32,000 nucleotides of DNA from Archaeoglobus fulgidus DSM 4304. GTDB lineage: Archaea > Halobacteriota > Archaeoglobi > Archaeoglobales > Archaeoglobaceae. The notes under the pieces are model-generated. The model did not search any database and was not told the DNA's origin. It saw only the letters and a list, made by a program, of their open reading frames with translations. This document shows, piece by piece, positions 1-32,000 of this stretch (position 1 is the stretch's first letter; each line of letters begins with the position of its first letter). The DNA lies in assembly GCF_000008665.1 (NCBI RefSeq), contig NC_000917.1, positions 1,650,001 through 1,682,000 on the forward strand, given 5' to 3'. A program made the translations under genes and the position numbers.

Positions 1-12
1 TCCATCGAACAT

Positions 13-2439: not shown

Positions 2440-2469
2440 TTTCAAATATCAGCCTGCCAATTTAGACCA

Positions 2470-5641: not shown

Positions 5642-5738
5642 TTTCTCACCTCGTATTACTTTTTTTCAGATTTTTCACAAGTGCTAATAAAGTTTTTGAT
5701 TTTAGTATTTTGGAGAAAATTATGAATAAAAAAGAAAA

Positions 5739-6838: not shown

Positions 6839-6932
6839 TTACCCACCTTCACATTTTTTGTTCCTAAACTGTGCATCCCTTATAAGAAAATTTTGATTTC
6901 GAATTAAAATATCAAACGAATTGATAAAAATT

Positions 6933-7313
6933 TTATCGAACTATGGCAAAAGATGCCAATTCCTCCTTATCTACCTTCTCTATGTCCTTGATCATGCTGT
7001 CAAAATGCCTGAACCACTCTTCCATTGCATCTTTAGCAATCTTTTTGAACTCCTCGAAGTCCTTCGGGAAGTAGAGGTACTTGTACCCCCCACCCTTCAG
7101 AATTCTGTACTCCCTCTTAACAAGCCCTCTTTCCATTAAGTTTCTTAAAGCTTTGTAAACTGTGCTTTCATCTTTCTCAAGCTCTTTTGCGATGGTTTCT
7201 ACATCCAGACCGGGGTTTTTCAGGAGAATGAGATAAACGTCCATTTCGAGACATGAAATGTTGAGGGCGCATTTCAGCACGCACTTCAAATCGGGACTGC
7301 ATGTGGCCTCCAT
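6933..7313 (-). CDS. TrmB/MarR-like winged-helix transcriptional regulator
   Basis: wHTH pattern EMDVYLILLKNPGLDVETIAKELEKDESTVYKALRNLMERGLVKRE. I prefer the ATG at 7313, preceded by AGGTGAT, over the GTG at 7343 used in the ORF track. Confidence 0.6.
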   Translation of the reverse strand: MEATCSPDLKCVLKCALNISCLEMDVYLILLKNPGLDVETIAKELEKDESTVYKALRNLMERGLVKREYRILKGGGYKYLYFPKDFEEFKKIAKDAMEEWFRHFDSMIKDIEKVDKEELASFAIVR

Positions 7314-7360
7314 TATATCACCTGTGAATTTTAGGGCCAGCACATCTTATAATTTTTCCC

Positions 7361-7958
7361 TTAAGCTTTCCCGAAGTACTTCTCCAGCACCTTTTTCTGC
7401 CCCCTTCTTAGTATCTCTGATAGAGTCGAGGGGGCTATGCCGAAAAACTCTGCAAGCTGTTCGAGCTTTACCCTTTTCGGGAAATCGAAGTATCCCTTTT
7501 CGAGGGCAATTTTCAGGATTTCCTCCTCCCTGTAAGTTATCTCGTCCTTGCCGGAGGCTTGCCTTTGTAAATAAGCTCGAAGTCAACACCCTCAAGGTTT
7601 TCAAGCAGGGCGATAAAGCCCTCGTCATCGCAGATTATGCTCCAAACAAGCTCAGATTCGCTGACGTCAACTCCTGTAATGACACAGCCGGACTCGAGGA
7701 TGGGAATCGCAACCAGACAGGTGTGCTCCTTAATGAGGACCTTCGCCTCTTTCGAAGAGATGGACACACCCTCGCAGTGCGAAGGCAATTTCTCTAACAC
7801 CTCCCAAGCGTTTTCTCCCTTTACCCTCAGCAGCCCCTTTACAACCTCCTCTCTCTTGGCGAAGCCTCTACCTTCACAATGCAGCTTTTCATGATTCCGT
7901 TCAGCGTGGCGAGGGTGCAGTTTTCAGGCAGCTTGGTTTTAATCTGCACTTCGAGCAT
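7361..7958 (-). pseudogene. HTH-10 (bacterio-opsin-activator-type C-terminal HTH) family regulator, broken into three frames by two apparent 1-nt deletions
   Basis: There are three colinear pieces on the minus strand. Piece 1 runs from ATG 7958 (MLEVQIKTKLPENCTLATLNGIMKSCIVKVEASPRE..) to the stop at 7839. Piece 2 is EEVVKGLLRVKGENAWEVLEKLPSHCEG...DFELIYKGK, with a stop at 7537. Piece 3 has no start codon and reads KDEITYREEEILKIALEKGYFDFPKRVKLEQLAEFFGIAPSTLSEILRRGQKKVLEKYFGKA, with a stop at 7361, a typical HTH_10 domain. The ORF-track entry 7347..7628 is in a wrong frame. Confidence 0.6.
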
Positions 7959-8039
7959 TACAGTTGGTTCACCGCAGAAAATAAAGATGACGAAAATCTT
8001 AGGGAGTAAGTATATACCACTTGGAGTCAATATCAAATC

Positions 8040-9908: not shown

Positions 9909-9953
9909 TGCTAATTTAGAAACATTTTTTAATTACCAATTTTTTCCTTTTTC

Positions 9954-10829
9954 ATGGAGGAGGTTCTTCCCAACGTTTACCTCATAGACACGCTGAAGTA
10001 CGTCGAGCCGGGAGTCATCTCTGCCTACGCTGTTGTTCACGAGAGGGCTGCAATAATAGACCCCGGAACTGCGAAGGGGGCCGAGATAATCCTTGATGAG
10101 ATTGATAGGAGCTGGAATGTTGAGTACATCTGCCCCACTCACATCCACATTGATCACGGAGGTGGGGCAGCGAGGCTTGCCAAAGCCCTTGATGCGAAAA
10201 TCATAGTCCATCCGAGAGGGGTTAAGCATGTCGTCAATCCCGAAAAGCTGTGGGAAGCATCAAAGGCGGTTCTCGGCGAGGTTGCGGAGATTTACGGCAA
10301 GCCAGAGAGCATTGATGAGAGCAAGGTGATTGCTGTTGAGGATGAGCAGGAGTTTGATTTGGGAGGGGAGAGGCTTAAAGTCTTCCACGCTCCGGGCCAC
10401 GCTCCGCACATGCTGGTGTATTATCTGACAAACTCAAAGGTGCTGTTTCCTGCTGATGCCGTGGGGATGTGCTTCGGAGGTGTGGTTTTTCCCCTCACAC
10501 CACCACCCTTTGATGCTGATGCGGCATTGAAAACCCTTAAGAGGCTGAAGGGGCTGAAGGTTGATTACGTGGCCTTCACCCACTACGGGGTGGTTGAGGG
10601 AGACTGGCCAATTGCTAAATCCTACGAGAAGGTAAAGAGCTGGTTGGAAATAGCAAAGGAGGTTGCCAATGCAAATGGAACTGTTGAAGAGTTCGTTGGG
10701 AGGCTTAGGAAAGAAGATGAGGATGTTGAGAAGCTTTTCAACGTGCTTGGCAGCAAGCCAGTTGCGCTGAGCTTCATCTATACCTCAGCCACCGGAATGC
10801 TCGACGCAGCAAGGAGGATGATAGAATGA
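9954..10829 (+). CDS. Metallo-beta-lactamase fold hydrolase/oxidoreductase
   Basis: HxHxDH motif (THIHIDHGGG) and a downstream HAPGHAPH. The stop overlaps the next gene's start by 4 nt (ATGA). Confidence 0.75.
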   Translation: MEEVLPNVYLIDTLKYVEPGVISAYAVVHERAAIIDPGTAKGAEIILDEIDRSWNVEYICPTHIHIDHGGGAARLAKALDAKIIVHPRGVKHVVNPEKLWEASKAVLGEVAEIYGKPESIDESKVIAVEDEQEFDLGGERLKVFHAPGHAPHMLVYYLTNSKVLFPADAVGMCFGGVVFPLTPPPFDADAALKTLKRLKGLKVDYVAFTHYGVVEGDWPIAKSYEKVKSWLEIAKEVANANGTVEEFVGRLRKEDEDVEKLFNVLGSKPVALSFIYTSATGMLDAARRMIE

Positions 10830-11830
10830 TGCTGAAGTTCAACCCTGATTTGTGCCTTAACTGCACAACATACAGCTGCCTCACCAAATGCATCAACCTG
10901 AACTACGATTTCGATTCGGCGAAGGAGGAGAAAAGGAAGATTGCCCTCGGAGAGTACAGCAGGGTTCTTGAGGAGTGCTACACATGCTATGGCTGCGAGG
11001 AGTACTGTGAGTTCAACAACCATCCCTTCTACCGCATGGCAGAGCTTCAGGAAAGTTTGGGAGTGAAGAAAGTCAGCGATGAAACAAAAGCAGCCCTTCT
11101 GCAGCGATACGATGTCAGCAGCGAGTTCATTCCAAAAAAGGTTGGCGGGAAGTTCGTCCACATCTGCCTCTTCCCTGAAGTGAAGGACTTGGTGAAGGGG
11201 AAGCTCTTTGAGGGCTATGATGTCGTCAGGGGGAGGCATGTATTCTGCAACATGCTCTACCTCCACTACGGGATGGTTTCCGTGGTTAAGGAGAGGGCGG
11301 AAAGAACGATAAGCAACATAATGAAGCTTCAACCTGATGAGCTAATCCTTTACCACGATGAATGCTACGCCTTCTACAAGTCCTTTGCCGAAGCTTACGG
11401 GATTGAAGTTCCCTTCCCCTACACACACCTCTTCGAGTTCCTTTATCAGCGTTTGAAGGAGATGGAGGTGAGGGAGCTTGGAGTAAAGGTTGCCTACCAG
11501 AGAAACTGTTCCAACAGGTTTATTGCCGAGACTGACAGAACTCTCGACAGAATCTTTGAGCTAATAGGCGTGGAGAGAGTTGAGAGGGAGTTTGATAGGG
11601 AGAGAGCGATTTGCTGCGGTGCCCCCTTCGTCCTCTCAGATGAGCCGGAGAAGGCTGAGGAGCTGCAGAGGAAGAACATCGATGATATGGTGAGCAGTAA
11701 TGCAGAGTACGTCGTCTTCAACTGCCCTATGTGCTACACCACTCTCGCAGAGAAAGTGAGGAAGAATGGGCTTAAGCCAGTAATGGTGAGCGAGCTCTGC
11801 AGGATGGCGATAGGGGAGGTGGATTATTAG
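10826..11830 (+). CDS. Fe-S oxidoreductase with CCG domains (HdrD/GlpC-like)
   Basis: N-terminal Cys clusters (CLNCTTYSCLTKC, CYTCYGCEEYC). There is one intact CCG domain (NCSNRF...ICCGAPF...FNCPMCY) and one degenerate upstream copy. Confidence 0.7.
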   Translation: MMLKFNPDLCLNCTTYSCLTKCINLNYDFDSAKEEKRKIALGEYSRVLEECYTCYGCEEYCEFNNHPFYRMAELQESLGVKKVSDETKAALLQRYDVSSEFIPKKVGGKFVHICLFPEVKDLVKGKLFEGYDVVRGRHVFCNMLYLHYGMVSVVKERAERTISNIMKLQPDELILYHDECYAFYKSFAEAYGIEVPFPYTHLFEFLYQRLKEMEVRELGVKVAYQRNCSNRFIAETDRTLDRIFELIGVERVEREFDRERAICCGAPFVLSDEPEKAEELQRKNIDDMVSSNAEYVVFNCPMCYTTLAEKVRKNGLKPVMVSELCRMAIGEVDY

Positions 11831-11907
11831 CTTATTTCAATAGGGCTAAGAAAAAGGCAAAGCACGATCGCCTCTTTCATTCAGCATAACGGTTAGTGTT
11901 AAAATTA

Positions 11908-12960
11908 TTAAATCCAGTTAGAGTAGCTTTCGATAAATCCGTTAAATCCGGCGGTTTTCACCCAGCCATCACTCCTCGTGCTGGTTACGCTGAGAGTTGC
12001 CGGGGGTGATGGCACCTTTGTCACACCCAGCGCAACCGTTATTCCCGCAGGATACGAGAACCCTACCGATACGGAAAATGCATAATCGTGCCCTCCCGTA
12101 ATGGCAATTTCCCTCGTATCTCCAGCGGGGGTTATGTAATATTCATCGTAATTCGCTGGCAAATTCCCGTGCCACGATACGTAATCCCTGTAACCTGCAA
12201 CAGGGTCTGTGTTCGTATCAACCGCGTACACCCTCTCGTAGTATATTTTTTCTTCTCCCATCTCAAGCTCCGTTATCGCGTAAACGTATTTTATTTGGAA
12301 ATAGACGGTATACTTGTTTTTTCCTGACAGGTACGGGCTGAAAAGTCCGCTGTCAAGAGTGACTTCGGTATAACCGGAAACCCAAGTTGGGGAACCGTAG
12401 GGACGGGTTTTACTTTCGATTCTAATTTTTGCCCCTCTTGGATAGCCGTATTTAGCAAATATGTCATCCCACGTTGCGAATTTGAGTACCGGGGTAAATT
12501 CGTAAGTCGTCCAAACTCCGGGTGTTGGTTCGGACTTTGTCTTGGGAACGTCCCTTAAAACAATCTTTACTGATTTATGCTCTGGTCTGGCAGGGTCTAC
12601 TGAGAATATTGCCACGCCCATTTTTCCCTCAGTGTAAGCTATAACTTCGAGGTTTATGCTTCTGTAAACCCTGATTTTTTCACCATTGATTTCGAAAGTG
12701 TTCACTTCTTCCTTGGGCAATATCAAACTGGTCGCAACGATTCCCGGTCCAGAACCACTCCAGATTTTTTTTGGACCCTCATCCGTAAGCTCGTTTATAA
12801 TTAAATTCGCAGAAATCGGTTTCCCGCCCTCATCCTCCATCTGGACGGTTATTCCCTGAACCAACTTATCCTTAAAATACACATTCACCGCTATGCTCGT
12901 CACAACTCCCAACACCACGAGCGCTATCAGAGCAACCACTAACCAACCACTCTTTTTCAT
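11908..12960 (-). CDS. Hypothetical membrane-anchored or secreted protein
   Basis: 350-aa ORF with a single N-terminal TM/signal anchor (WLVVALIALVVLGVVTSIAV). The remainder is Tyr/Thr/Gly-rich and looks beta-rich. I recognise no family. Confidence 0.5.
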   Translation of the reverse strand: MKKSGWLVVALIALVVLGVVTSIAVNVYFKDKLVQGITVQMEDEGGKPISANLIINELTDEGPKKIWSGSGPGIVATSLILPKEEVNTFEINGEKIRVYRSINLEVIAYTEGKMGVAIFSVDPARPEHKSVKIVLRDVPKTKSEPTPGVWTTYEFTPVLKFATWDDIFAKYGYPRGAKIRIESKTRPYGSPTWVSGYTEVTLDSGLFSPYLSGKNKYTVYFQIKYVYAITELEMGEEKIYYERVYAVDTNTDPVAGYRDYVSWHGNLPANYDEYYITPAGDTREIAITGGHDYAFSVSVGFSYPAGITVALGVTKVPSPPATLSVTSTRSDGWVKTAGFNGFIESYSNWI

Positions 12961-13060
12961 TCTCTAACTTGTATGCCAGTTTCCCAAATAAAGATTCCGA
13001 CTGTTTCAACTCAGATTGAAGCAATCGAAAGATTTATTTAACTTGATTTGACATGTCCTT

Positions 13061-13402
13061 GTGGATTGGCAACATAGAGAATGCTCATTTTACGTGGTAA
13101 ATCTTCATTCCGAGGGGGCTAAAGCACTGGCTGCTGAGCTAAGCAGCGAGGTTGGCCTCAAAATATTAAAAGAACTGTACAGGAATCCTCTCTCAGTCAT
13201 GGATCTCTCTGCAAATCTCGAAATTCCCGTTTCAACAGTTCAATACCACGTCAACAGGCTGCTGGAACTCGGCGTTATCAGAGAGGCCGAAAGAAAGCTC
13301 GGAAAAAGGCTTAGAGACGTAAAAACGTACGTTTACGATAAAGAGGGGATAATTTTTCTAAACTGTCCAGAGCCATCAGGAGATACCACAAAATCTGAAT
13401 AA
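13061..13402 (+). CDS. ArsR-family winged-helix transcriptional regulator
   Basis: The stretch LKILKELYRNPLSVMDLSANLEIPVSTVQYHVNRLLELGVIRE is a typical ArsR/HTH_20 core. The start codon is uncertain (GTG at 13061 per the track, with an alternative GTG at 13094). Confidence 0.65.
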   Translation: MDWQHRECSFYVVNLHSEGAKALAAELSSEVGLKILKELYRNPLSVMDLSANLEIPVSTVQYHVNRLLELGVIREAERKLGKRLRDVKTYVYDKEGIIFLNCPEPSGDTTKSE

Positions 13403-13421
13403 AAAAGTAAGAAAGAGCTCA

Positions 13422-14846
13422 CTAATCCCTCCTGTAAATCACCCCATCCGCCTTTCCTGCAGGGATGGAGTACTTTGGAGGCAGGATACCGAGCTTCCTT
13501 GCCTCCTCCTCCAGCCAGTCCCTGTGGTCTGGATGGGCAAGCTGAATCATTGCCGCTGCCCTCTTGTAGATTGGCAGACCTCGCAGATAGGCAATTCCCC
13601 ACTCTGTAGCTACATACTGCACAACCGACCTCGGAACTGTCACCCCAGCACCTGTTGGTAGAGCGGGGATAATTCTTGAGGTGCCGTTGTAGGTTGAGTA
13701 GGTCGCCAGAACGCTCTTCCCCTGCCTGTCGAAGCTGTAGAAGCAGCCAAGCACGAAGTCAAGCTGCCCTCCTGTACCGCTGATCTGGAATATCTTGCCG
13801 CTTGGAGACGTTAGACCAATCTGCCCGGAGTTTATCTGTCCCATGAGGTCTATCTGGGCAACCTGATTGAGGGAGAACATCTTCGGCTGCTGGGCAACAA
13901 CGAAGGGGTTGTTGGTGTACTCAACGGGATAGGTTGCGACCTCTGGATTCCTGTCGAGGAAATCGTAGAGCTTTCTTGTTCCAAGGGCAAAGGAGAACAC
14001 AGCCTTTCCCCTGTCAAGCTTCTTGTTCTGGTTGGTAACTATCCCCTCCTCCATCAGCTCCATCAGTCCGTCTCCCATCATCTCGGTGTGGATGCCCAAG
14101 TCCTTCAGTCCTGCTTCCTTCAGCATCCTGACAACCGTGTTGGGCAATCCACCAATGCCAACCTGAAGCGTTGAGCCATTCTCAATCAGCCCTGCCTCCA
14201 TGATGTTCTCGGCTATCATCTCATCCTCCTTTGATGGTGGGGGTAAGAAGGGCAGGAAGGGTGTGGGGAACTCATTGTCCTCAACAATGTAATCAACTTC
14301 CGAAATGTGGATGCACTCGTCGTAACCTCCATTCACCCAAGGCATGTCCTTCTTAACCACCACAACAACCTTCTCTGCCCCCTCAGCTATGGATTTCAGG
14401 AAGGTGCAGGTGACTCCGAAGTTGAAGAAGCCGTGCCTGTCCATTGGCGTCGTGACGAGGAAAGCTATGTCCGTGTACTTCTTCCCTCCCTTCAAAACTC
14501 CACCAAGCTCCTTCGCTATGTATCCCGCATCCGACAGAACTCCGGGGCGGTGCACGCAGGGCCCAAGCTCCTTGCTGCACTTCCTTACTGGTTCGTAGAG
14601 GAAGCAGCTTTCCCACTTAATCTTCTCCTGCTCAGGGTCAGCCTTCAAGAACTCGTAGTGGGCGATGTCGATGAAGGTTCCGACCTCCACATGGCTGAGC
14701 TCGTCCTTCCTCTTTGCAAGGTACTTGTCGATAATAAGGGCAGTGTTGGCAGAACCGCCAATTTCGATGTGCATTCCATCCTTTACGAGGTTTGCAGCCT
14801 CTTCGGGGCTGATGAGCTTTCTTTCATATTCTTTCTGGTAGTCCAT
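13422..14846 (-). CDS. Acetyl-CoA hydrolase/transferase family protein (4-hydroxybutyrate CoA-transferase-like)
   Basis: 474 aa with the family motif GTGGQLDF and overall colinearity to Cat2/AbfT-type CoA-transferases. GAGGTGGTGAT precedes the ATG. Confidence 0.8.
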   Translation of the reverse strand: MDYQKEYERKLISPEEAANLVKDGMHIEIGGSANTALIIDKYLAKRKDELSHVEVGTFIDIAHYEFLKADPEQEKIKWESCFLYEPVRKCSKELGPCVHRPGVLSDAGYIAKELGGVLKGGKKYTDIAFLVTTPMDRHGFFNFGVTCTFLKSIAEGAEKVVVVVKKDMPWVNGGYDECIHISEVDYIVEDNEFPTPFLPFLPPPSKEDEMIAENIMEAGLIENGSTLQVGIGGLPNTVVRMLKEAGLKDLGIHTEMMGDGLMELMEEGIVTNQNKKLDRGKAVFSFALGTRKLYDFLDRNPEVATYPVEYTNNPFVVAQQPKMFSLNQVAQIDLMGQINSGQIGLTSPSGKIFQISGTGGQLDFVLGCFYSFDRQGKSVLATYSTYNGTSRIIPALPTGAGVTVPRSVVQYVATEWGIAYLRGLPIYKRAAAMIQLAHPDHRDWLEEEARKLGILPPKYSIPAGKADGVIYRRD

Positions 14847-14992
14847 ATCACCACCTCTACCTTAAAAATTATGCTGACAATTTAACCTTTTCTAAAAAGA
14901 TTTTGCGGTAGTTTAGGAAATTTTTTAAAATTAAAGATATTGAAAGTTCATTGTCAACATTTAAACAATTTTAACATTACCAACTTTAATCG

Positions 14993-15005
14993 GGAAATTT
15001 TTTAA
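14993..15005 (+). promoter_or_regulatory. Candidate BRE/TATA element (GGAAATTTTTTAA) for the acyl-CoA synthetase gene
   Basis: It is centred ~26 nt upstream of the ATG at 15027 with no SD, consistent with a leaderless transcript. An identical 13-mer occurs at 14916-14928. Confidence 0.3.
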
Positions 15006-15026
15006 GGGATTTGGCAATTATAGATT

Positions 15027-16700
15027 ATGGTAGTTCTCTACGGGAAGGATGTGGTGGACAGATACGTTGCAGAGGGATGGTGGGACAACGTAACGCTTTT
15101 TGAGAGATTCAGGAGGAACTGCAAGAGAAATCCTGAAAGGACTGCTGTTGTTGACCCTCCAAACAAGGAGGAGCTCGTGGGTTTTAAGCCTGAAAGGTTG
15201 AGTTATGCTGAGCTCAGCGATTTTGATGACAGACTGGCCTCATTTCTGCTCGATAACGGAGTTTTCAAGGATAGCTGCGTTTTGGTGCAGCTTCCCAATA
15301 CGGTGGAGCTAATTGCTGCATACCTCGCAACGTGGAGGGCTTCAGCCTTCATCTCTCCCGTTCCAATGCAGTGGAGGGAGCACGAGATGGGGCATGTTTG
15401 CAGGGTTTTGCAGCCAAAGGTTTTCATAACAGCAGACACCTTCAAAGGCTTCGACCACGCTCAGATGGCCTCCAGGATTAAGGAGGCTTTTCCGAGCATT
15501 GAGAAAGTCGTAACGTATTCCCAGCTTTACGAGATTTGCAGAAACTACCGCATAAGGGAGGATCTTGATGAGGCGTCATCCTTTGCATCTGGAAACGATA
15601 TTGCCGTGGTGCAGTGGACCTCAGGAACCGAAGCCGAGCCCAAAGCCTGTCCCCTCTCCCACAACAACTGGGGCTTTCTGCGCTTTCTTTACGATGGAGA
15701 GAGATACAGAGGAGGGCTGCTGAGCGATGGGGATGTTATAATGAACCCGGCCCCCATAGTGAATATGACAGGAATTGGAGTTGGCCTCATTCCGTGGATC
15801 ATGTGCTCCGGAACCTTTGTTCTGCACCACCCCTTCGAACCAATGCTCTACGTCAGGCAGCTGATTGAGGAGGGTGTGAACTTCACTCTCGCTCCTCCTG
15901 CTGTTGTTGTTGCAATTCTAAAACATCCCATGGCTTCACAGCTCAGCTTTGACAAGCTGAAGTACTTCGCCCAAGGCTCGGCACCTCCACCACCATGGAC
16001 TTTTGTCGAGCTGAAAAACAGGGGGATAGAGCCGATGAACATCTGGGGGCAGAATGAGGGGACTGGACTGTTCTCCTACGACAGGACAATCCCTGATCTG
16101 GAGAAGAGGGCAAGGAGCTTTCCCATTCCGGATAAAGTAAGGGATTTGCCCTTCTTCAGGGCTATAGAGATAAAGATTGTTGACGAGAGTGGTAAGGAGA
16201 TGAAGGAGCCGGGCAGTGTGGGAGAGCTGTGCTACAGAAGCCCACTTACGATGCCATGCTACTACCGCCAGCCTGAGTTGACGAAGAAGTCCTTTGATGC
16301 TGACGGCTTCTTCCACACAGGTGATCTGTTTGAGGTAGTTGATGATACTACAATCGCCTTCTTCGACAGAAAGAAGGACATAATAATCAGAGGAGGGTTC
16401 AATGTAAGCTCCGCTGAGGTGGAGGACGTCGTCAAGAAGCACCCCAACGTATTGGATGCTGCAGCAGTGGGTGTTCCTGACGAGAGGCTCGGGGAGAGAG
16501 TTGGCTTGTACGTTGTTCCAAAGCCCGGCACTACCGTAACGCTGGAAGACATAAAGAAGCACATGGAGGAGAGCGGAGTTGCAGTTTACAAGTGGCCTGA
16601 AGTGGTGGTTGTTGTTGACGAGATTCCAAGAAATCCTGTGGGGAAGGTTCTGAAGAGTAGGCTGAGGAAGGAGATCGTTGAGAGGATGAAAGCTGGTTAA
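15027..16700 (+). CDS. AMP-dependent acyl-CoA synthetase/ligase
   Basis: 557 aa with an AMP-binding motif variant (WTSGTEAEPKA), FHTGDL, the DRKKDIIIRGGFNV hinge, and a C-terminal PRNPVGKVLK. Confidence 0.85.
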   Translation: MVVLYGKDVVDRYVAEGWWDNVTLFERFRRNCKRNPERTAVVDPPNKEELVGFKPERLSYAELSDFDDRLASFLLDNGVFKDSCVLVQLPNTVELIAAYLATWRASAFISPVPMQWREHEMGHVCRVLQPKVFITADTFKGFDHAQMASRIKEAFPSIEKVVTYSQLYEICRNYRIREDLDEASSFASGNDIAVVQWTSGTEAEPKACPLSHNNWGFLRFLYDGERYRGGLLSDGDVIMNPAPIVNMTGIGVGLIPWIMCSGTFVLHHPFEPMLYVRQLIEEGVNFTLAPPAVVVAILKHPMASQLSFDKLKYFAQGSAPPPPWTFVELKNRGIEPMNIWGQNEGTGLFSYDRTIPDLEKRARSFPIPDKVRDLPFFRAIEIKIVDESGKEMKEPGSVGELCYRSPLTMPCYYRQPELTKKSFDADGFFHTGDLFEVVDDTTIAFFDRKKDIIIRGGFNVSSAEVEDVVKKHPNVLDAAAVGVPDERLGERVGLYVVPKPGTTVTLEDIKKHMEESGVAVYKWPEVVVVVDEIPRNPVGKVLKSRLRKEIVERMKAG

Positions 16701-16835
16701 GTAGCATCAATTTTTTATTACTAAATAACACATTCTCTTATTTTAAGAATAATTTTTTATTTAAATTTTAAACCGAAACTTTTTTTATATTTTCATGCTA
16801 ATTTTAAGTTAACCTAAAACTGAGGTGATTAAAGG

Positions 16836-18680
16836 ATGGAAGAGAGGGAAAAAGTTGTTTTTGCTGCAACTCTTGCAGCAACGTTTAAGCCAGACTTGAT
16901 GACGAACGACAAAATTGAAGCTGCAACGAAGGGTCATGGAACGCTCGTAATACCGGTTCTCTGTGCCGCAAACTCAATTGCTGAAGACATGTTCGGTGCA
17001 GTTGAGGAGCCCGGAATGAGGCTGATGGGTTCAGCAACCCTTGTTGATGCTGCCGCACCGCTACTCCCGCTCGACCTTGTAATTCAGAAGGCCGTTAATG
17101 AAGCAAAGAACGCCGGAGCATCGCCGGAGAATGCGGCGCTGATCGTTGCTGCCCTCGCTTACTTCTCCGGAGCCGCTGCAAGGGCAGGAGTTCCAATGGC
17201 AAACAGAAAGCTGGGAGCGATGGCCAGAATGCACGCAGGAGCCAGCAGAACGAGCGGTATAGCACTTGTTACAAACAAATTCACGCATAGGATGCCCACC
17301 TTTCCGGCCTACAAAGCAGTTTTCGAGCAGCTCCTCGATAAGAAGCTTACTAGAGTTGACGGCTCCGTTCTGCCACCCTTTATTGCAGGCGGAGCCATTT
17401 ACGGACACAGCGCTCTTGGTGAGGATGTTAACATTCCCGAACTCGCTAAGAATGCCGCAAAGGTTGGAACTGAGGCCATGATGAGAGCCATGGAAGGGGC
17501 TGGAATTACACCCTATCCGCTCTGGCCCGCTTTGATTGGCGCAACAGTCGCAATGGAGATCTTGCATCCAGACGCCTTCCTGGGTGAGGAATACGGCGCG
17601 TTTGGGAGCGTTGATTCAGCGTACATGGCAGGAAAAGGTGCTGCTGAGGCTGCCGGACTGCCTGAGAAGATTCATGTACGCGGAACGGGGGAGGAGTTTG
17701 ATACAGCAAGAGTCATCGGTGATTTCGGTCTTATACTGAAGGACATAGGCGGGTCGTCAGTTATAGACTCAATGGCTCTCAACGAGATTTTTGCAGGTTT
17801 TGAGGAGTCACCGATAATCGGTGCTGGCTTCTCTGGAGGGCCCGTCAACCCACCGCTTGGACACCTCTGCGGGGATAGCGTACCTGCAATCAGGCTGCTC
17901 ATGAAGTACGAAGGGGACATCTACAAAGTTGCTGAGGAAATAAGGAACTACAAGATGAACTCGTTCATCGACCCAGAGATGGCGCTTTGCGCTCTAAACA
18001 CCATAACGAGAAAGGCTGAAGAGGTCAAGAGAGGACCTGTAACCAGAGCATGCATGATAGCAAGTGAAAACGTGAGAGGCAGAGCAGTTTACAGGAGGGC
18101 CGTGAAAGCATACGAGATGCTGAAGGAGGGTAAGAGCGTTGATGAAGTCGCAAAGGCTCTGGATGAAGAGAGAAAGGCATACGTGGAAAAGAGAGGCTCG
18201 GCAATTCTCTCGGCGTTCACAGGCAAGAAGATAGAGTTCAGGTTTACGGAGCTCAGACCTCAGGCGAGAAGGACGGATGGATTCACCAAGAAGTACTGGG
18301 GCTTCGACTCGTACATCTCCTACGACGTTACAATAGACGGGAAGACCTACCACATTGAGAACCTGTCCGCAAAGGCTGTTGTGGACTTCGCTCTTGAAGG
18401 TAAAGGCAGAGACGACCCTGACTACGGAACCGCTTTATTTGCAGGCGCTGTATTGGCACAGGAGCTTCAGTATATCGGGCACACGATCATCAACGTCACC
18501 GTTCCGGCAGCGGTTGCAGCGATCCTTGGTGCTGATGAAAAGGATGCAGCAAAGATGGCCGAAAATGGAGCTTACCTGACAAGGGCCATTCCAGGTGCCA
18601 AGAACAACGCCAAGGAGGTTGCGAAGCTTGCGAAAATGATATACTCAAGATTACAGGAGAAGGGCGAAATATTACCTTGA
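16836..18680 (+). CDS. Hypothetical protein, 614 aa, Ala/Gly-rich and soluble
   Basis: A long uninterrupted ORF with GAGGTGAT before the ATG. Its stop lies 6 nt before the larC start. I recognise no family or motif. Confidence 0.6.
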   Translation: MEEREKVVFAATLAATFKPDLMTNDKIEAATKGHGTLVIPVLCAANSIAEDMFGAVEEPGMRLMGSATLVDAAAPLLPLDLVIQKAVNEAKNAGASPENAALIVAALAYFSGAAARAGVPMANRKLGAMARMHAGASRTSGIALVTNKFTHRMPTFPAYKAVFEQLLDKKLTRVDGSVLPPFIAGGAIYGHSALGEDVNIPELAKNAAKVGTEAMMRAMEGAGITPYPLWPALIGATVAMEILHPDAFLGEEYGAFGSVDSAYMAGKGAAEAAGLPEKIHVRGTGEEFDTARVIGDFGLILKDIGGSSVIDSMALNEIFAGFEESPIIGAGFSGGPVNPPLGHLCGDSVPAIRLLMKYEGDIYKVAEEIRNYKMNSFIDPEMALCALNTITRKAEEVKRGPVTRACMIASENVRGRAVYRRAVKAYEMLKEGKSVDEVAKALDEERKAYVEKRGSAILSAFTGKKIEFRFTELRPQARRTDGFTKKYWGFDSYISYDVTIDGKTYHIENLSAKAVVDFALEGKGRDDPDYGTALFAGAVLAQELQYIGHTIINVTVPAAVAAILGADEKDAAKMAENGAYLTRAIPGAKNNAKEVAKLAKMIYSRLQEKGEILP

Positions 18681-18686
18681 TTTTTT

Positions 18687-19888
18687 ATGAGAATTCTTAT
18701 TTTTGACCCGAAAATAGCAGGCGTATCAGGAGATATGCTCCTCTCTTCACTCATCGACCTTACAAACTCCCTTGACGAGGTGTTAGAGCTTGAGGAGGTA
18801 ATAAACAGGCTGGACTCGTGCAGGAAGTTCAAGGTAAACGTCGTGGAAAGGGATGCTGGAATCAGGGCGAAAGGGCTTGAAATCGAGATTGAAGAGAGAA
18901 AGCTGGCAAACCCTTCGGAATTCAAGAGGGCGGTGGAGTTCGTTGTGAATCACATGGACCTGCCAGAAAGGGGAGCAAAATGGTCTGGAATGTAATTGAT
19001 GACCTCATAAGCGCTGAAGCCGCGCTTCACGGTAATAACTTTCACCTTCACGAGGTTGCGTCTCTCGACACTATTTTTGACGTTGTGGGAAGCGCCGCGC
19101 TACTCTGCAGAAACGGCTACCTCGACGCGGAAATCTACACGACTCCACCAGCGCTAGGCGGAGGGAGCATAGAAATAGCTCACGGCAGAATAACCATTCC
19201 TGCTCCAGCCACTCTCGAAATTCTTAGGAGACATAAGTTCCGCTACTCCAACTTCAACGTTGATGCCGAACTTACAACACCAACCGGCGCTGCAATCCTC
19301 GCAAACTTAACGGAAAACATCGTTGACGTTTTTCCACCCATGACACCGTTTAGGGTGGGCTACGGCTCAGGAACAAGGAAAATACATGGCGTTGTCAACG
19401 TTTTGAGGGTTGCTGAGGGAGATGCTTTCCAGGCGGTTAACGACAGGATAGTGATTCTGGAAACAAACGTTGACGATGCAAGCGGTGAGATTATAGGCCA
19501 TGCAGCAACCAGACTATTCGAGGAGGGGGCTGTAGATGTCTATGTAACTCCTGCAATCGGAAAAAAGAATAGGCCTACACACGTAATTTCAGTAATAACT
19601 GATTACAAAAACTACTCCCGGCTGGTTGAGCTGCTGATGAGAGAAACGGGAACGATAGGAGTGAGAATCTACGAGCTGCCGAGAATGGTGGCTCAGAGGA
19701 AAAAAGAGAGAGTTGAGGTGTTTTTAGAGGGGAAAAAATTCGAGATTACCGTTAAGATATCAAGAGTGGGAGAGAAAGTTATCAACGCAAAGCCGGAGTA
19801 CGAGGATTTAAAGAGGGTGGCGAGGGAGCTTAATCTGCCACTAAGAGAGGTCGCAAAAAAGGTGGAAAAAATACTCACATCTTCCTGA
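18687..19888 (+). pseudogene. larC: LarC (DUF111) nickel-pincer cofactor nickel insertase, split into two overlapping ORFs at an A4 run (18977-18980)
   Basis: ORF1 (18687..18995) begins MRILIFDPKIAGVSGDMLLSSLIDL, the LarC N-terminal motif. ORF2 (18980..19888) continues with AEAALHG..FHLHEVASLDTIFDVVG and TTPTGAAILANL. Reading GCA AAA then ATG (one extra A, or a -1 slip) fuses them colinearly with LarC. Confidence 0.8.
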
Positions 19889-21221
19889 GCGCATCCTCTG
19901 CTGCAAGTATTACTGGTGGGGTGGTGGGAGCTGAAGTTAAAAGCGGATGCGTGCCTATCTGAAGCGTGTCTATCTCTGAGGCGGTCAGGTTGTTCTGGAT
20001 TGCCATTGCTATCTGATTTACCATTTCTCCAACCTCATATCTCCCAGTAACCTGACCTCCAAGGATTACACCACTCTCCTTGGCAAAGATCAGCTTCACC
20101 TTCGTCTTTGCCGCCCCGGGGATACTTGCCAGATGTCTGTTTAAGCTCTCTCCGTAGCCTGCAACGACCTCAAAACCTTCTTTCTTCGCCATCTCCTCAG
20201 TAAGGCCTGCAGCGCCGAGTGCAACATCCCCAACGAAGGTTGAGAAAACACCCACCGTTCCCTTGTTCACTCTCACAACCTTGAGAGAGTACAGATTTGC
20301 CCCAACAATTCTCGCTTCGAAGGTGGCAGTTGAAGCTAACATTACCCTGCTCGTTTCCCTGGTGAAAAAGTCCTTTTCTTCCGAACAGTCCCCAACGGCG
20401 AAAACGTCTTTCTCGCTCGTCCTTCCGTACTCATCCGTCCATATTCTATTTCCTATGCTTATTCTAAGTCCTGCCTTCTTAGCAAGCTCTATGTTCGGAC
20501 GGTATCCCACCGACATTATGACCACATCTGCCTCAATCTTCCTGCCATCCGCGAGTTCAACAGCTTCTACGCTGGAATTGCCCGTAATCCTCTTAACTGT
20601 CGAGTTCAGATAAACTTCTACTCCAAGCTTCTTGAGCTCTTCCTCAGCAATTCTTGCGAATTCCTTGTCAAAAGCGGCTGGAAGCAGCTGATCCATCATT
20701 TCCACCATCGTAAACTTTTTCCCAGCTTTAGCAATCTGCTCTCCTACCTCGACACCTATGAACCCGCCTCCGACTATGACAACCTTTTCAGCCTTTTTTA
20801 CTGCCTCATGCAGTTTTCTGAGCTCTTCTATGTTCTTCGAGACCGTGAAAACTCCTTTCTTCTCAACCCCCTCTATTCTCGGCATCACCGGTGTTGAACC
20901 CGTTGCAAAAACAAGCTTCTCGTATGAAATGCTCTTTCCACCCTTCGTTCTCACGACCTTGGCTTTTACGTCAACATCTTCGACCTCATCGATGATGAAC
21001 TCAATCCCAAGGTTCTCTGCAGGCTTCGTTGGCATCACGTCAGCCTCTACAGAGCCGAGAGTTTTGAAGATGTACGGTATACCGCAAGGCACCAAACTTG
21101 TTTCCTCTTTCTTTATTATCGCCACGCTCTTGGCAGGGTAAAACTTTTTAGCCGTCGTTGCTGTGACTATTCCTGCTGGTCCACCTCCGATAATCAAAAC
21201 GTCGTACTTCATAATACACAT
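19875..21221 (-). CDS. FAD-dependent pyridine nucleotide-disulfide oxidoreductase (NADH oxidase / CoA-disulfide reductase type)
   Basis: The N-terminal YDVLIIGGGPAG FAD motif, a candidate redox Cys in SLVPCGIPY, and a second dinucleotide fold VVIVGGGFIGVE. The start is either 21221 or the ATG at 21212. The 3' end overlaps convergent larC by 14 nt. Confidence 0.8.
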   Translation of the reverse strand: MCIMKYDVLIIGGGPAGIVTATTAKKFYPAKSVAIIKKEETSLVPCGIPYIFKTLGSVEADVMPTKPAENLGIEFIIDEVEDVDVKAKVVRTKGGKSISYEKLVFATGSTPVMPRIEGVEKKGVFTVSKNIEELRKLHEAVKKAEKVVIVGGGFIGVEVGEQIAKAGKKFTMVEMMDQLLPAAFDKEFARIAEEELKKLGVEVYLNSTVKRITGNSSVEAVELADGRKIEADVVIMSVGYRPNIELAKKAGLRISIGNRIWTDEYGRTSEKDVFAVGDCSEEKDFFTRETSRVMLASTATFEARIVGANLYSLKVVRVNKGTVGVFSTFVGDVALGAAGLTEEMAKKEGFEVVAGYGESLNRHLASIPGAAKTKVKLIFAKESGVILGGQVTGRYEVGEMVNQIAMAIQNNLTASEIDTLQIGTHPLLTSAPTTPPVILAAEDALRKM

Positions 21222-21366
21222 GCTCTCGATGAATATTTAAACTTATAAGAATATTAATAAATAAAATCTTTCAGTTATAAACCTTTTGTGAATATTTCTT
21301 TTTCTGTTTCGATAGATTAATTATAATGCTCTAAATATTTTCAACGGAACGCAATCAACAACAAAA

Positions 21367-22236
21367 TCAACTCCGAATCCTGAAAAATCCCATCCCGAAG
21401 CTCGCCTTTGCTCCACCGCCAATAAGCTCGCCTATTGACAGGAGAGTCAGAGCATTATCGTCAATTTCTGAAATCGAATATCTCGCCCTCCCCGTAACAC
21501 CGAAAAAAGACCTTAACCCCTGCCTTTTCGACCTGTGATGCAACTCGTGTTTCTCCCAGCTTGATTCCAGTGTTTCAGCTTCGCAGTAAAATTCAGGCAC
21601 CTCTCCACTGCCATACTCGTTGACGAAGAGGATTAGCCTCCTTCGCACTATGTGAATGAGGAATGGAAGATTTATGGGGGTTTTGGCTTCCATGGGAGTT
21701 AGATAATCAACCTCTATCTCCTTTTCCACCTCTCTGGGTTTGATTTTGCCCAGCTCAATGCTACTAAGGTTCTCAACAAAAACCGTTTCGCCATCGTAAA
21801 CCTCCTTTCCGCTTATGGCATCTGAAATGCTTACTATTTCGTATTTGCTTGTAGCATTGAGCCCCATTTTGCCAAGATATCGGAGACCATATATGATGTG
21901 TGGTAAGTACTTGACGTAGTCCCCAAAAACGTTGATGTAAAGCGTTAGCTCTCCTCTTCCGCTTACAGACCTGCCGAAAAAGGGCGGGATGAACACGATG
22001 GGGCGTACAGGCTGGGATCTGCCCCTTTTCTGCCTGTCTCTTGTGTAAAGGGCATGGTAGAGGCAGTCATCGACAGACTTGCAGATGTTACAGGATGGTT
22101 TAAGGTAGCTGCAGACGGCCTTCAGCAGAACGCTGCCAAAGCCCCCTCTGAACTTGTTGCCGAGGAAGGGCGGAAGGTGATACTGGGGGAAGTAGAGTCT
22201 GGCTTTAAGTCTGGTGAGTTGGAGGGAGAAGGACAT
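21367..22236 (-). CDS. cas6: Cas6-like RAMP endoribonuclease (predicted pre-crRNA processing)
   Basis: 289 aa with a C-terminal glycine-rich loop (IGGGAKASFGMGFFRI) typical of Cas6/RAMPs and an N-terminal FRGGFG motif. It is adjacent to the cmr genes. Confidence 0.7.
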   Translation of the reverse strand: MSFSLQLTRLKARLYFPQYHLPPFLGNKFRGGFGSVLLKAVCSYLKPSCNICKSVDDCLYHALYTRDRQKRGRSQPVRPIVFIPPFFGRSVSGRGELTLYINVFGDYVKYLPHIIYGLRYLGKMGLNATSKYEIVSISDAISGKEVYDGETVFVENLSSIELGKIKPREVEKEIEVDYLTPMEAKTPINLPFLIHIVRRRLILFVNEYGSGEVPEFYCEAETLESSWEKHELHHRSKRQGLRSFFGVTGRARYSISEIDDNALTLLSIGELIGGGAKASFGMGFFRIRS

Positions 22237-22243
22237 ATTTTGC

Positions 22244-22417
22244 TCAAAACCTGTTTTGAAGAGAGTTTTTCACAATTATCCCCGTCTTTCCAAGTATTTC
22301 GAACATTTCGCTGTAACTCTCAGCTCTTTCGAGTCCTAAAGATGAGATGATGTGTGCAGTCTCAATTATGTCTATCTTGCCTTCGATTATATTCCTGTCA
22401 ACCCTATCTAATGCCAT
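22244..22417 (-). CDS. 57-codon ORF resembling the central part of a DUF86/HepT (HEPN-superfamily) protein; probably a truncated remnant
   Basis: The ATG is preceded by GGAGGTTGAGGT. The stretch IIEGKIDIIETAHIISSLGLERAESYSEMFEILGKTGIIVKNSLQNRF resembles the ...P.sY.e.f..L.e.gii... block of YutE/DUF86 proteins. It stops just where the RNxxxHxY motif would begin and lacks the N-terminal helices. The ORF is too short to appear in the supplied track. Confidence 0.3.
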   Translation of the reverse strand: MALDRVDRNIIEGKIDIIETAHIISSLGLERAESYSEMFEILGKTGIIVKNSLQNRF

Positions 22418-22559
22418 ACCTCAACCTCCTCATTCTCTCGTAGTACTCGTGATACGGGCTTTATGTCCAGATACTCCCATCATTACTCTGTTCCACCCTC
22501 CCTCTTTTCATCCTTACAGTGAATGAGGATTGAGTTTTTAGGACGTTAAACATAATCTG

Positions 22560-22591
22560 GCAGGGACGAGAGTCCTCACATCGTCCCTTGC
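22560..22591. other. Inverted repeat / potential RNA hairpin in the cmr6-cas6 gap
   Basis: AGGGACGA (22562-22569) pairs perfectly with TCGTCCCT (22581-22588) around an 11-nt loop. The stem extends to 10 bp if one T is bulged. Confidence 0.35.
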
Positions 22592-22699
22592 AAGATTTGC
22601 CTCGTATAGTGCAGGCGGTCTGAAGTTTTCATTTACGATTGTGGATAGGCTTTCGGCATTCATTTCTATAAATTTTTCAAACTCGCTTTAAAAATTCTT

Positions 22700-25521
<2,822 letters not shown>

Positions 25522-25541
<20 letters not shown>

Positions 25542-26487
25542 TGATATCCACCTCTCGAATTACACCCGTATCTTTCCACTCCCTCAATACATTTCTAACA
25601 TCCACATCGCTTATCAAATTCCAGAGATTCACAATTTTATCAAACATTATACCCTTAGAAACTTTATCTTCTTCAAACTCCAGTATTCTACCCCTGAACT
25701 TTGTCAAAAATTGTTTTCCGAGCCCGTAATTCTCAAGAATCCGCTCCACCTCCCTGATGTTCACGAAACCTCTTCCACCAAACAAATTAGAAATATCTTT
25801 CATGATGCTACCCATTTCCAAGTTGAATATTGGCAACTCCTGCCATTTCTTGAGAATCTCTATTGTTGCCTGCCTTATGTTTTTGTTACTCGGTTTGTCT
25901 ATCCACTCTGGCTCCATCAGAGCCACATCATTCTGAAACAGATAGTAATACTTTGAGATCGTTGCCGTGTATGCGCCTGCTGTGAGCATTGCCAGATTAA
26001 TCTGATTCGTTCCTCCTATCATGTTACCCCAGACTTCCTTATCTTTTAAGGCTCTGAGTATCACTCCAATTTTCTCAAAGCAATCATCAAAATTCTGATG
26101 ATCTACTTTAACAAGATAGAATTTCTTTAAACAGAATTCCAAATTAAAATTTTTTTCGATGTGTCTAAATAGTTTCTTCAAATACTTCACAATTGGTTTT
26201 TCTACCTTCTCTTCAGACCCTCCTGAAAGACTGAACCAATTGGACTTATATTCCAGCTTTTTGCGCCCTTCAATCACATCTCGTGAGGTAAATACCACCA
26301 ATACTTCAGGTATACCTTTTGTCATTTCGTAACTGCCCTTTTTCTCCGCCTCACTCGAGTACTTGAAAAATTCTTTGGCCTCTTCAATTCCAAGAGCTTG
26401 AGCAATCTGAAGAGTGTACACTGCCGTCAATGGTACAGTAACAGCACCCGGTCGAAAGCCTACACCTGAGATGTGATACACACCCAT
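25522..26487 (-). CDS. CARF-like CRISPR-associated protein with a putative C-terminal winged-helix region; function unknown
   Basis: The N-terminal strand-loop YHISGVGFRPGAVTVPL and a later NMIGGTNQINLAM parallel the LGTSPGGV / DITGGRKSM motifs of Crn1/Csa3-type CARF domains. The C-terminal FVNIREVERILENYGLGKQFLTKFRGRILEFEEDKV looks wHTH-like. I see no R-x4-6-H HEPN motif or other nuclease motif. The start abuts the cmr3 stop. Confidence 0.55.
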
Positions 26488-31444
<4,957 letters not shown>

Positions 31445-31465
31445 GCACACTGGCTATCAAAGGAA

Positions 31466-31473
31466 AATATTAA
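31466..31473 (-). promoter_or_regulatory. Candidate TATA box of the cmr operon (leaderless cmr1 mRNA predicted)
   Basis: The minus strand reads TTCGAAAGCTTAATATTTTCC. TTAATATT is centred ~26 nt upstream of the cmr1 ATG (31444) and no Shine-Dalgarno sequence lies in between. Confidence 0.3.
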
Positions 31474-31501
31474 GCTTTCGAAATGTGCTCATTTTACAGT
31501 G

Positions 31502-32000
31502 TTACGGTACAATCAACCCAGCGAGTTCGGTTGCACTCACAATCAGGGGCTTTCTCTTCTTCACCTCAATCAACCCCATCTTCTCAAGAGCTGCAAGATG
31601 CCTCCTTATGGTGCTCTCATCCTTGCCCAAGTGCTTGGATAAGCCTCTCACGTCTCTCAGCCCGTTCATAACGGCCTTAAGGACTTCAACTTTATCATCA
31701 CCAAGCGGTGACTTGACTATTTTCAGAACTCCAACGGGCAGCTCCACAATATCAGAGAAATCTTCTTTCTCAATCTCAACTTTCAGGTTTTCTGGCAGCC
31801 CCAACATGCATGCGAGAAGCACGATGACGACCAAAACTCTCATACCTCCGCTGATATTAACAACAACCAAATCATAGCCCTCAACCTCTTTGATTTTATC
31901 CGCAACCTCTCTGATTGCTTTTTCAACACTCTTCAGCTCAACCTGTAGAACTTCAACCTCCACCCTGTCTCCGTAGGAAGTTTCCAGAAGCTTTCGAATC
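31502..32000 (-). CDS. csa3: Csa3-like CARF plus wHTH transcriptional regulator (N-terminus lies beyond the window edge)
   Basis: The frame stays open to nt 32000. The CARF motif is VVNISGGMRVLVVIVLLA (compare DLTMGMR in Sulfolobus Csa3). The C-terminal wHTH is VLKAVMNGLRDVRGLSKHLGKDESTIRRHLAALEKMGLIEV. Confidence 0.75.
   Translation of the reverse strand, partial: IRKLLETSYGDRVEVEVLQVELKSVEKAIREVADKIKEVEGYDLVVVNISGGMRVLVVIVLLACMLGLPENLKVEIEKEDFSDIVELPVGVLKIVKSPLGDDKVEVLKAVMNGLRDVRGLSKHLGKDESTIRRHLAALEKMGLIEVKKRKPLIVSATELAGLIVP

Follow-up and report, generated by a model that had tools for sequence, protein, structure and literature searches.

The stretch of DNA analysed here, called the window, comprises 32,000 nucleotides of the Archaeoglobus fulgidus DSM 4304 genome (contig NC_000917.1, positions 1,650,001 to 1,682,000 of the forward strand), and its proteins were annotated with Pfam, NCBIfam and PADLOC profiles. 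Inside a type III CRISPR-Cas operon of this window lies AF_1865 (25522..26487, minus strand, stop codon included), an open reading frame (ORF) with an ATG start that codes for a 321-aa protein consisting of a CARF domain and a winged-helix-like module. The ORF is an exact match to the database entry 'Uncharacterized protein AF_1865', and the NCBI annotation is that of a hypothetical protein. AF_1865 and its homologues are referred to as X; L- and P-numbers label the loci compared and the related proteins, respectively. AF_1865 probably serves type III CRISPR signalling as an output that is not a nuclease. The N-terminal domain has the CARF fold and its motifs, there is no nuclease domain, the C-terminal module has a winged-helix topology, and X is linked to ring nucleases and interchanges with the effector Csx1.

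The minus-strand gene order, according to Pfam and NCBIfam, is csa3, cmr1, cmr2/cas10, cmr3, X, csx3, cmr4, cmr5, cmr6 and cas6. An earlier note, made from the sequence alone, had placed the gene between cmr3 and cmr4, starting right after the cmr3 stop and overlapping csx3 by 20 nt, and the junctions read exactly so. The TAA of cmr3 (26490-26488; gene at 26488..27513, minus strand; PF09700, 5.7e-101) abuts the ATG of X at 26487 with zero spacer, and the ATG of csx3 at 25541 falls inside the end of X, whose stop codon TGA is at 25524-25522. The csx3/crn3 gene (AF_1864; 25227..25541, minus strand; TIGR02579, 1.5e-42) is a 104-aa ORF for a ring nuclease specific for cyclic tetra-adenylate (cA4). 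Its product shows 100% identity to PDB entries 6VJG and 3WZI, and the gene overlaps cmr4 (24176..25243, minus strand; RAMPs match, 9.6e-30) by 17 nt. X is not a chance ORF, since homologues are found down to E = 6e-144 in many archaeal and several bacterial phyla.

Two different genes for CARF proteins with a winged helix-turn-helix (wHTH) are present in this co-oriented gene string, AF_1865 (25522-26487) and a canonical csa3 (31502-32000, minus strand; TIGR01884, 1.1e-43), the latter extending beyond the window end, where its reading frame is still open. The pairing of csa3 and X recurs in L011 and L028, and redundancy of both genes is therefore unlikely.

Domain architecture of X

The AlphaFold2 model of AF_1865, built as a monomer on 28 homologues, has a predicted local distance difference test score (pLDDT) of 89.4 and a predicted template modelling score (pTM) of 0.86. 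The CARF domain comprises residues 1-195 (25903..26487, minus strand) and has two conserved insertions at about residues 41-59 and 73-95. When the model was compared with the PDB by Foldseek, all 25 matches with E <= 1e-3 were CARF proteins, most of them with probability 1.00. The top match is the Crn1-family ring nuclease Sis0811 (E 3e-7), and the others include EiCsm6 (the Csm6 of E. italicus), Csa3, S. thermophilus Csm6', Sso2081, Cami1, Cdn1, Card1, Cad1, Cam1 and Can2; all the significant PDB matches bind cA4 or cyclic hexa-adenylate (cA6). The template modelling scores are low (~0.3-0.35), these being local, domain-level matches, and we assume that differing domain arrangements account for this. 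The Pfam families Csa3_N and HFX_2341_N give sub-threshold matches to X at residues 101-181. Together with the PADLOC assignment to clade CARF3, these results agree with the earlier description of a CARF-like N-terminus of the Crn1/Csa3 type.

The two canonical ligand loops are the best-conserved parts of X among the 28 homologues. Motif 1 (residues 5-19, H-x-S-G-x-G-x-x-P-G-A-x-T-x-P; 26431..26475, minus strand) occupies the β1-α1 loop, with a strand at residues 3-8 followed by a helix at 14-31 in the model, and its residues H5, G8, G10, G14 and P19 are invariant. Motif 2 (residues 151-164, E-V-W-x-N-M-I-G-G-T-N-Q-I-N; 25996..26037, minus strand) occupies the β4-α4 loop, and E151, G159, N161 and N164 are invariant. 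In Csa3, the β1-α1 and β4-α4 loops are the cA4-binding motifs 1 and 2 (PMC8844856). The stretches SGVGFRPGAV (residues 7-16) and IGGTNQ (residues 157-162), which the earlier note had picked out as CARF loops, lie within these conserved loops. An hhalign alignment pairs NMIGGTNQ of X with NLSGGMRA of Csa3, so that N161 stands at the position of the Csa3 motif-2 arginine. Over the full length of X, 21 residues are invariant across Archaeoglobi, Thermococci, Asgard archaea, Thermoproteota, WOR-3 and Elusimicrobia.

The C-terminal part contains a module of predicted winged-helix-like topology at residues 225-280 (25648..25815, minus strand), formed in the model by helices 225-236, 244-253 and 258-264 and by strands 241-243, 269-272 and 275-278. 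A basic pattern, [KR]-Q-[FY]-h-[AP]-K-L-R-G-R ... K-V-x-K-G, is conserved over its putative recognition helix and wing, with K263 and L264 nearly invariant. This putative helix is conserved across phyla, which is easier to reconcile with a conserved target or partner than with operators specific to each locus. The module is followed by a two-helix tail (residues 281-321; 25525..25647, minus strand; helices 282-293 and 297-307) that belongs to no Pfam family and contains an invariant tryptophan, W304. When the isolated C-terminal domain was refolded alone, its pLDDT was 83.

No HEPN, PD-(D/E)xK or HD domain was matched by any profile in X (Pfam, PADLOC and isolated C-terminal domains), in keeping with the earlier reading. 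There is no histidine at all in residues 196-321 of AF_1865, and a HEPN R-x4-6-H motif is therefore impossible there; nor is an R-x4-6-H motif conserved in the X family.

A natural fusion offers a further view of this module. P0141 is a 144-aa protein in which an X-type wHTH and tail (X residues 226-318) are joined to a short domain resembling Csx3 and the X-type CARF domain is missing. Its gene (L071 1363-1797; also in L069 and L070) was seen in three samples, directly after cas6. The fusion ties the C-terminal module of X to a cA4-binding partner, and it keeps open the idea that this module is an output or a docking unit.

Ring-nuclease neighbours and interchange with Csx1

The neighbourhoods of the core family were surveyed in 35 distinct contexts, annotated with profiles and with phmmer queries taken from the window and from Pfam-annotated contigs. 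X is nearly always in or beside a type III locus. It can sit between cmr3 and cmr4, follow cmr6 or csm5, or adjoin III-D-like modules, and it can also stand alone. A known or predicted ring nuclease adjoins X in 26 of the 35 contexts (74%). The neighbour is csx3 in 18 of them, in both gene orders, with one divergent pair and two cases of a short Csx3-like variant; one of these 18 pairs, in a Methanosarcinales metagenome-assembled genome (MAG), is split by an IS1634-family transposase (L027 10976-12634). A small Csx14/Crn1-like CARF protein is the neighbour in six contexts, and a TIGR02619-type CARF protein ('CRISPR system ring nuclease'-like) in two. None of the three types is found beside X in the remaining nine, three of which are truncated contigs.

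Csx14 counts as a predicted member of the Crn1 family of ring nucleases (PMC12409355). Like X, it is a small type III accessory protein with CARF and HTH parts (TIGR03642; Cas_NE0113 CARF plus CARF-associated HTH), but it belongs to a different family and often neighbours X without being related to it, appearing to replace Csx3 as partner. In a set of 38,742 genomes Crn3 was detected at only 37 loci, and loci with two ring nucleases account for only ~4% of ring-nuclease loci (PMC12409355). A protein whose gene adjoins three different ring-nuclease-type families behaves like one in need of an off-switch and not like an off-switch itself.

The X and csx3 genes overlap, and are apparently translationally coupled, in several lineages. 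Since the pair is also found after cmr6, after csm5 and alone in divergent orientation, it is a movable accessory cassette and not part of the Cmr complex. A role of X as a Cmr subunit was rejected, its position not being fixed and sister cmr operons carrying Csx1 instead. For the same reason, the stoichiometric co-expression with the effector complex that the earlier note had thought almost certain is not supported.

The relation was also examined from the side of Csx3, in 80 loci obtained by scanning metagenome contigs with a Csx3 alignment. The gene adjacent to csx3 is X in 18 loci and a bona fide Csx1 (CARF-HEPN) in 21, and both together are found in none; the other 41 loci, many with short flanks, have neither. 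The Csx1 proteins checked exceed the Pfam cut-offs for Csx1_CARF and Csx1_HEPN. X and Csx1 share three exact positions: cmr3-[X|Csx1]-csx3-(MNT-HepT)-cmr4; cmr6-[X|Csx1]-csx3; and, next to a divergent TIGR02619-type CARF gene, csx3 with either X or Csx1 after it. For instance, the metagenome contigs Ga0190369_1000165 (L082) and Ga0180302_10001303 (L083) contain a csx3-MNT-HepT block (~3028-4087 in both) that is 93% identical in nucleotides. The identity of the proteins is 80% for Csx3 and 98% for both MNT and HepT, while that of Cmr3 and Cmr4 is only 47-49%, and upstream of csx3 there is Csx1 in L082 and X in L083. Such a block suggests that accessory cassettes inside cmr operons were recently exchanged laterally. 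Sequence similarity between X and the Csx1 proteins sharing its slot could not be detected by hhalign (E 0.57). The swap exchanges non-homologous genes inside a mobile 'effector + ring nuclease' cassette, and it is the strongest argument for X as the functional counterpart of an effector.

Toxin-antitoxin pairs of the MNT/HepT (nucleotidyltransferase/HEPN) type, sometimes accompanied by a PIN gene, are inserted into the cmr operon between csx3 and cmr4 in several lineages. They are present in L008 (11247-11881), in L010 (2276-3224) and, downstream of csx3, in L074, L076, L079, L080, L082 and L083. A. fulgidus lacks such a pair between csx3 and cmr4.

A proposed cA4 receptor and its alternatives

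The signal to which X could respond is predicted to come from the Cas10/Cmr2 of its own operon. In the product of the cmr2/cas10 gene of the window (27510..30524, minus strand), the predicted source of cyclic oligoadenylate (cOA), Pfam recognises Cmr2_N, Zn-binding and palm2 domains. An HD motif (HDPPDK) is present as well, and the cyclase motif GGDD is intact. GGDD is kept in 14 of the 15 Cas10 proteins examined in X-family loci, five of which have no HD motif. AfCsx3 binds cA4 with a dissociation constant below 0.1 uM, cleaves it specifically at 3.5 per min at 50 C, and works by cA4-bridged oligomerisation (PMC7371418). We infer cA4 as the expected ligand of X because its neighbour Csx3 is cA4-specific; dimerisation, nucleic-acid binding and a biological output of X are likewise proposed by inference.

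Our tentative preference, held at somewhat less than an even chance, is that AF_1865 is a cA4 receptor placed in the effector slot, with a winged-helix output and a response ended by Csx3. AF_1865 would be a dimeric CARF receptor, without a nuclease, for the cA4 made by the Cas10/Cmr2 of the same operon. The cA4 would enter the pocket of the CARF dimer and its binding would re-orient both winged-helix modules, as in Csa3 and Sis0811. This re-orientation would switch the binding of nucleic acid, most likely DNA, leading to a transcriptional or other occupancy response. The output module would comprise the C-terminal winged helix and the two-helix tail, and X would be the effector half of a two-gene 'effector + ring nuclease' cassette, whose other half, the co-translated Csx3/Crn3, would terminate the response by degrading cA4. 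It is possible, although we consider it rather doubtful, that X and its relatives constitute a distinct class of non-enzymatic, cA4-activated type III effectors functionally interchangeable with the RNase Csx1. The cA4-bound winged-helix dimer would then clamp nucleic acid, and the result would be silenced transcription or a defence or dormancy programme, a response strong enough for selection to keep an adjacent ring nuclease (Csx3, Csx14 or a TIGR02619-type CARF protein). The CalpL-CalpT-CalpS system (a SAVED-Lon protease, an anti-sigma factor and a sigma factor) resembles this proposal in that a type III cA4 signal is turned into an output via transcription and not via nucleic-acid degradation. 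However, that system is bacterial only, and X would be a direct sensor and output in one protein.

Several observations weigh against a cA4 receptor with a winged-helix output. The isolated C-terminal domain has no significant match in fold or in sequence: the best Foldseek E value is 0.024, and the weak matches comprise MarR, MexR, HpaR, PadR, MntR and Sso10a, winged helices of Cdc6 and the wHTH of Sis0811. The structural check suggested earlier has thus recovered the CARF fold, with weak matches only for the C-terminal domain; the wHTH-like C-terminus fits in its predicted topology, from which the call is made, and not in a significant match. No recurrent family was found by Pfam in 24 isolated C-terminal domains of the X family. 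The net charge of this domain is modest (about +2), and the isoelectric point of the whole protein spans 5.4-9.5 across homologues. The wHTH of Sis0811 could not be docked on double-stranded DNA and was judged structural (PMC8643638). A shared palindrome or operator was sought upstream of X genes or operons in seven regions, which contain inverted repeats without a common element. The CARF domain has unusually many invariant polar residues (H5, S44, S68, D135, K139, E151, N161, N164, Y181 and Y182), which could reflect catalysis and not binding alone. A canonical Csa3 coexists with X in this locus, in L011 and in L028, which would make a plain Csa3-like role partly redundant. In addition, some X loci carry another candidate effector: a CARF-PIN protein (~480-500 aa; PADLOC CARF_m1--CARF_PIN, E ~1e-200) in L001 (15035-16543), L006 (12422-13873), L034 (5733-7294) and L024 (3586-5028), a homologue of the PIN part only in L004 (2508-3593), and, in L027, a 187-aa protein after csx3 with one predicted transmembrane helix and a SAVED domain (13392-13952). 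X is therefore not always the sole possible output.

The earlier note had left open a regulator, a second ring nuclease or a new effector, and the gene context favours an effector or sensor over a second ring nuclease. It is unlikely that X is a Csa3-type feedback regulator, that is, a cA4-responsive transcription factor tuning cmr, cas or CRISPR loci and not an immune output. Csa3 of S. solfataricus (PDB 2WTE, 6W11, 6WXQ) shares with X an N-terminal CARF domain, a C-terminal winged helix, the lack of a nuclease domain, the PADLOC clade CARF3 and a local profile similarity around β3-α3-β4 and motif 2. It binds cA4 and moves its wHTH domains, with no ring-nuclease activity (PMC8844856), and Csa3 proteins control Cmr expression as well as genes for adaptation (PMC9704534). 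In several X loci a candidate effector is encoded separately (CARF-PIN, for example), which would also suit a regulatory role. However, X is ~100 residues longer than Csa3, with the two CARF insertions, a linker and the two-helix tail, and fails the Csa3 profiles: it reaches 16.8 bits on Csa3_N (PF22662) against a cut-off of 27 and has no match to TIGR01884 (cas_HTH), whereas the neighbouring true csa3 of the window scores 149 bits. The Csa3 motif 1, Phi-G-F-(N/D)-x-z-F (PMC8844856), is replaced in X by S-G-L/V-G-x-x-P-G-A, and motif 2 of X (G-G-T-N) has N161 where Csa3 has Arg98. Csa3 is found in type I-A loci, while X resides in type III operons beside ring nucleases, a tight association that is not described for Csa3, and can coexist with a true Csa3 in the same locus, as here. 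X also alternates in one slot with the effector Csx1, and locus-specific operators do not predict a recognition helix conserved across phyla. Quite unlikely, too, is a Crn1-like ring nuclease, in which a CARF plus wHTH enzyme would degrade cA4 like Sis0811 and Sso1393 and act as a second off-switch beside Csx3. Sis0811 (PDB 7PQ2), the best structural match, is itself a ring nuclease with CARF and wHTH domains and, like X, has a tyrosine-rich last strand, the YYY of X (residues 180-182) resembling its Y189/Y191. Many invariant polar residues lie in and near the pocket loops of X, G10-x-S12 is present in 15 of the 28 homologues, and N161 occupies the position of the Crn1 lysine, where the ring-nuclease-active TonCsm6 uses N135 (PMC8643638). 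The paper on the Sis0811 structure cautions that a CARF structure does not tell whether a protein is a ring nuclease (PMC8643638), and because cOA cleavage is not predictable in this way the explanation keeps some weight. Against it, X does not match the NCBIfam Crn1 model (NF040581) and belongs to CARF3, while Crn1 belongs to CARF7 or CARF_m13 (PMC12409355). The catalytic serine of GxS/T varies (at position 12 there is S in 15 of the 28 sequences, N in seven, R in three including AF_1865, Y in two and F in one), and an invariant Asn stands in place of the pocket lysine of motif 2. The frequency of a ring-nuclease-type gene next to X contrasts with the scarcity of loci with two ring nucleases, X swaps with Csx1 and not with ring nucleases, and phage or plasmid homologues are lacking, unlike in several ring-nuclease families.

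A non-DNA-binding accessory role is improbable. In such a case X would sequester cA4 as a threshold buffer, or its C-terminal module would dock Csx3 or another protein as a timed unit. The overlapping, apparently coupled X and csx3 genes, the P0141 fusion, the action of Csx3 through cA4-bridged oligomerisation (PMC7371418) and a C-terminal domain without a convincing DNA-binding relative are all in its favour. However, X is also found with unrelated ring-nuclease families or with none, so Csx3-specific docking cannot be general; a pure sponge has no need of a conserved 125-residue second domain; and the occupancy of the Csx1 slot suggests an output and not a buffer. It is hardly credible that X is a decayed Csx1-type effector, itself functionless after the loss of its HEPN domain. 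Csx1, a cA4-activated RNase with the layout CARF-HTH-HEPN (PMC9704534), does share with X the exact operon slot beside csx3 in three contexts, and a legacy PADLOC profile labels the X family 'Csx1'. But X has neither a HEPN domain nor a histidine in its C-terminal third, the alignment with the slot-sharing Csx1 proteins reveals no similarity, Csx1 structures come far down the list of fold matches (2i71, E 2e-3), and conservation extends over the full length of X across phyla. The apparent X fragments in close relatives are due to homopolymer sequencing errors. This candidate was rejected because of context and conservation and is already close to refuted.

The earlier reading of X is supported in its essentials. 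To it are added here a confident fold assignment, the exclusion of nuclease domains, a systematic linkage to three ring-nuclease families, a one-for-one interchange with Csx1 and a fusion with a Csx3-like module. Type III surveys contain 31 ring-nuclease loci without a recognised effector and 133 loci with a cyclase-positive, nuclease-deficient Cas10 but without a known or candidate effector (PMC12409355, PMC11229360), and the X family is a concrete candidate for part of this gap. X would either show cA4 signalling in type III immunity acting directly via a DNA- or RNA-binding protein or be another type of off-switch. It can be tested cheaply, since AfCsx3 is well behaved and has been crystallised, and type III systems that make cA4 in a heterologous setting are already available, with Csx1 and Csx3 as controls.

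Family distribution and further observations

The full-length PADLOC model for X is 'CARF3--CARF' (PDLC01864, E 3.6e-140). Legacy PADLOC 'Csx1' models, which leave no room for a HEPN domain, also match (PDLC01427, E 2.6e-68). Canonical Csa3 proteins, including that of the window, score best on 'CARF3--CARF' models too, which makes X a separate subfamily of the major CARF clade containing Csa3, the CARF3 assignment being based on PADLOC model names. NCBIfam gave nothing relevant for X, and PDB sequence searches with the single sequence and the profile gave only spurious matches such as TCTP and NELF.

In an exhaustive profile search against 1.84 billion representatives, just 191 clusters reached E <= 1e-3, and 50 reached E <= 1e-30. 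The core family is distributed among archaea (Archaeoglobaceae, Thermococcaceae, Hadarchaeales, Nitrososphaeria, Aenigmatarchaeota, Asgard archaea, Thermoplasmata, Methanoperedens and Methanosarcinales) and also occurs in WOR-3, Elusimicrobia and Desulfobacteraceae, and distant relatives, in the CARF part only, are present in Chloroflexota and cyanobacteria. A tblastn search of phage and plasmid sequences found no relatives of X, and the viral structures of BFVD gave no match; a viral or plasmid origin and an anti-CRISPR role were rejected on these grounds.

The family is small and already catalogued, with its own profile in the published CARF census as distributed in PADLOC, and 'uncharacterised CARF family proteins' had been depicted next to csx3 in the paper on that enzyme (PMC7371418). 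The earlier statement that the protein is uncharacterised thus stands for experiment, no experimental study of the family having been found in the literature (queries with AF1865/AF1864 mostly gave antibody catalogue numbers), but not for the recognition of the family.

Pseudogenisation of X in close relatives was also rejected. On a metagenome contig similar to A. fulgidus (L072 2055-3020; LZCG01000430.1), X is fragmented by four single-base homopolymer indels, with no substitutions, which is a sequencing artefact. This artefact accounts for the 96-97% partial database matches P0002 and P0003 and for the fragments among cluster members.

Among distant relatives, an X-like CARF domain is fused to an AAA_21/AAA_15 ABC-type ATPase in P0148 (776 aa) and to Effector-associated domain 7 in P0167 (414 aa), so the CARF module of the X clade is reused with other outputs. 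The CARF-PIN protein mentioned above, itself a candidate effector, recurs near X-csx3 loci in Thermococci and others. In an Elusimicrobia MAG, an 824-aa protein (L037 17262-19733) combines a β-CASP/metallo-β-lactamase nuclease region, with sub-threshold matches to aCPSF1 and to a type VII Cas14 model, with a TIGR02619 CARF domain.

The short (~85 aa) divergent Csx3-like protein downstream of X is encoded in a bacterial MAG (L016 10924-11187) and in a WOR-3 MAG (L017 10936-11190). It keeps the two histidines (AHALH) and has IYSSPVTG at the place of the catalytic Csx3 stretch VYD69-P-R71-LG; judging from these residues, it may bind cA4 without cleaving it.

In the window, a 460-bp gap without a convincing ORF separates cmr6 from cas6 (22237-22699), and CRISPR repeats, an Rfam match and a tandem repeat were looked for there and not found. 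An Rfam scan of the whole window gave nothing, and a promoter and terminator scan was not above shuffled controls, the models being bacterial and ill-suited to an archaeon. The G+C content of the CRISPR-cas part (window 21000-32000) is 0.37-0.46, compared with 0.46-0.54 for the metabolic genes (1-20000), a difference consistent with a laterally acquired island.

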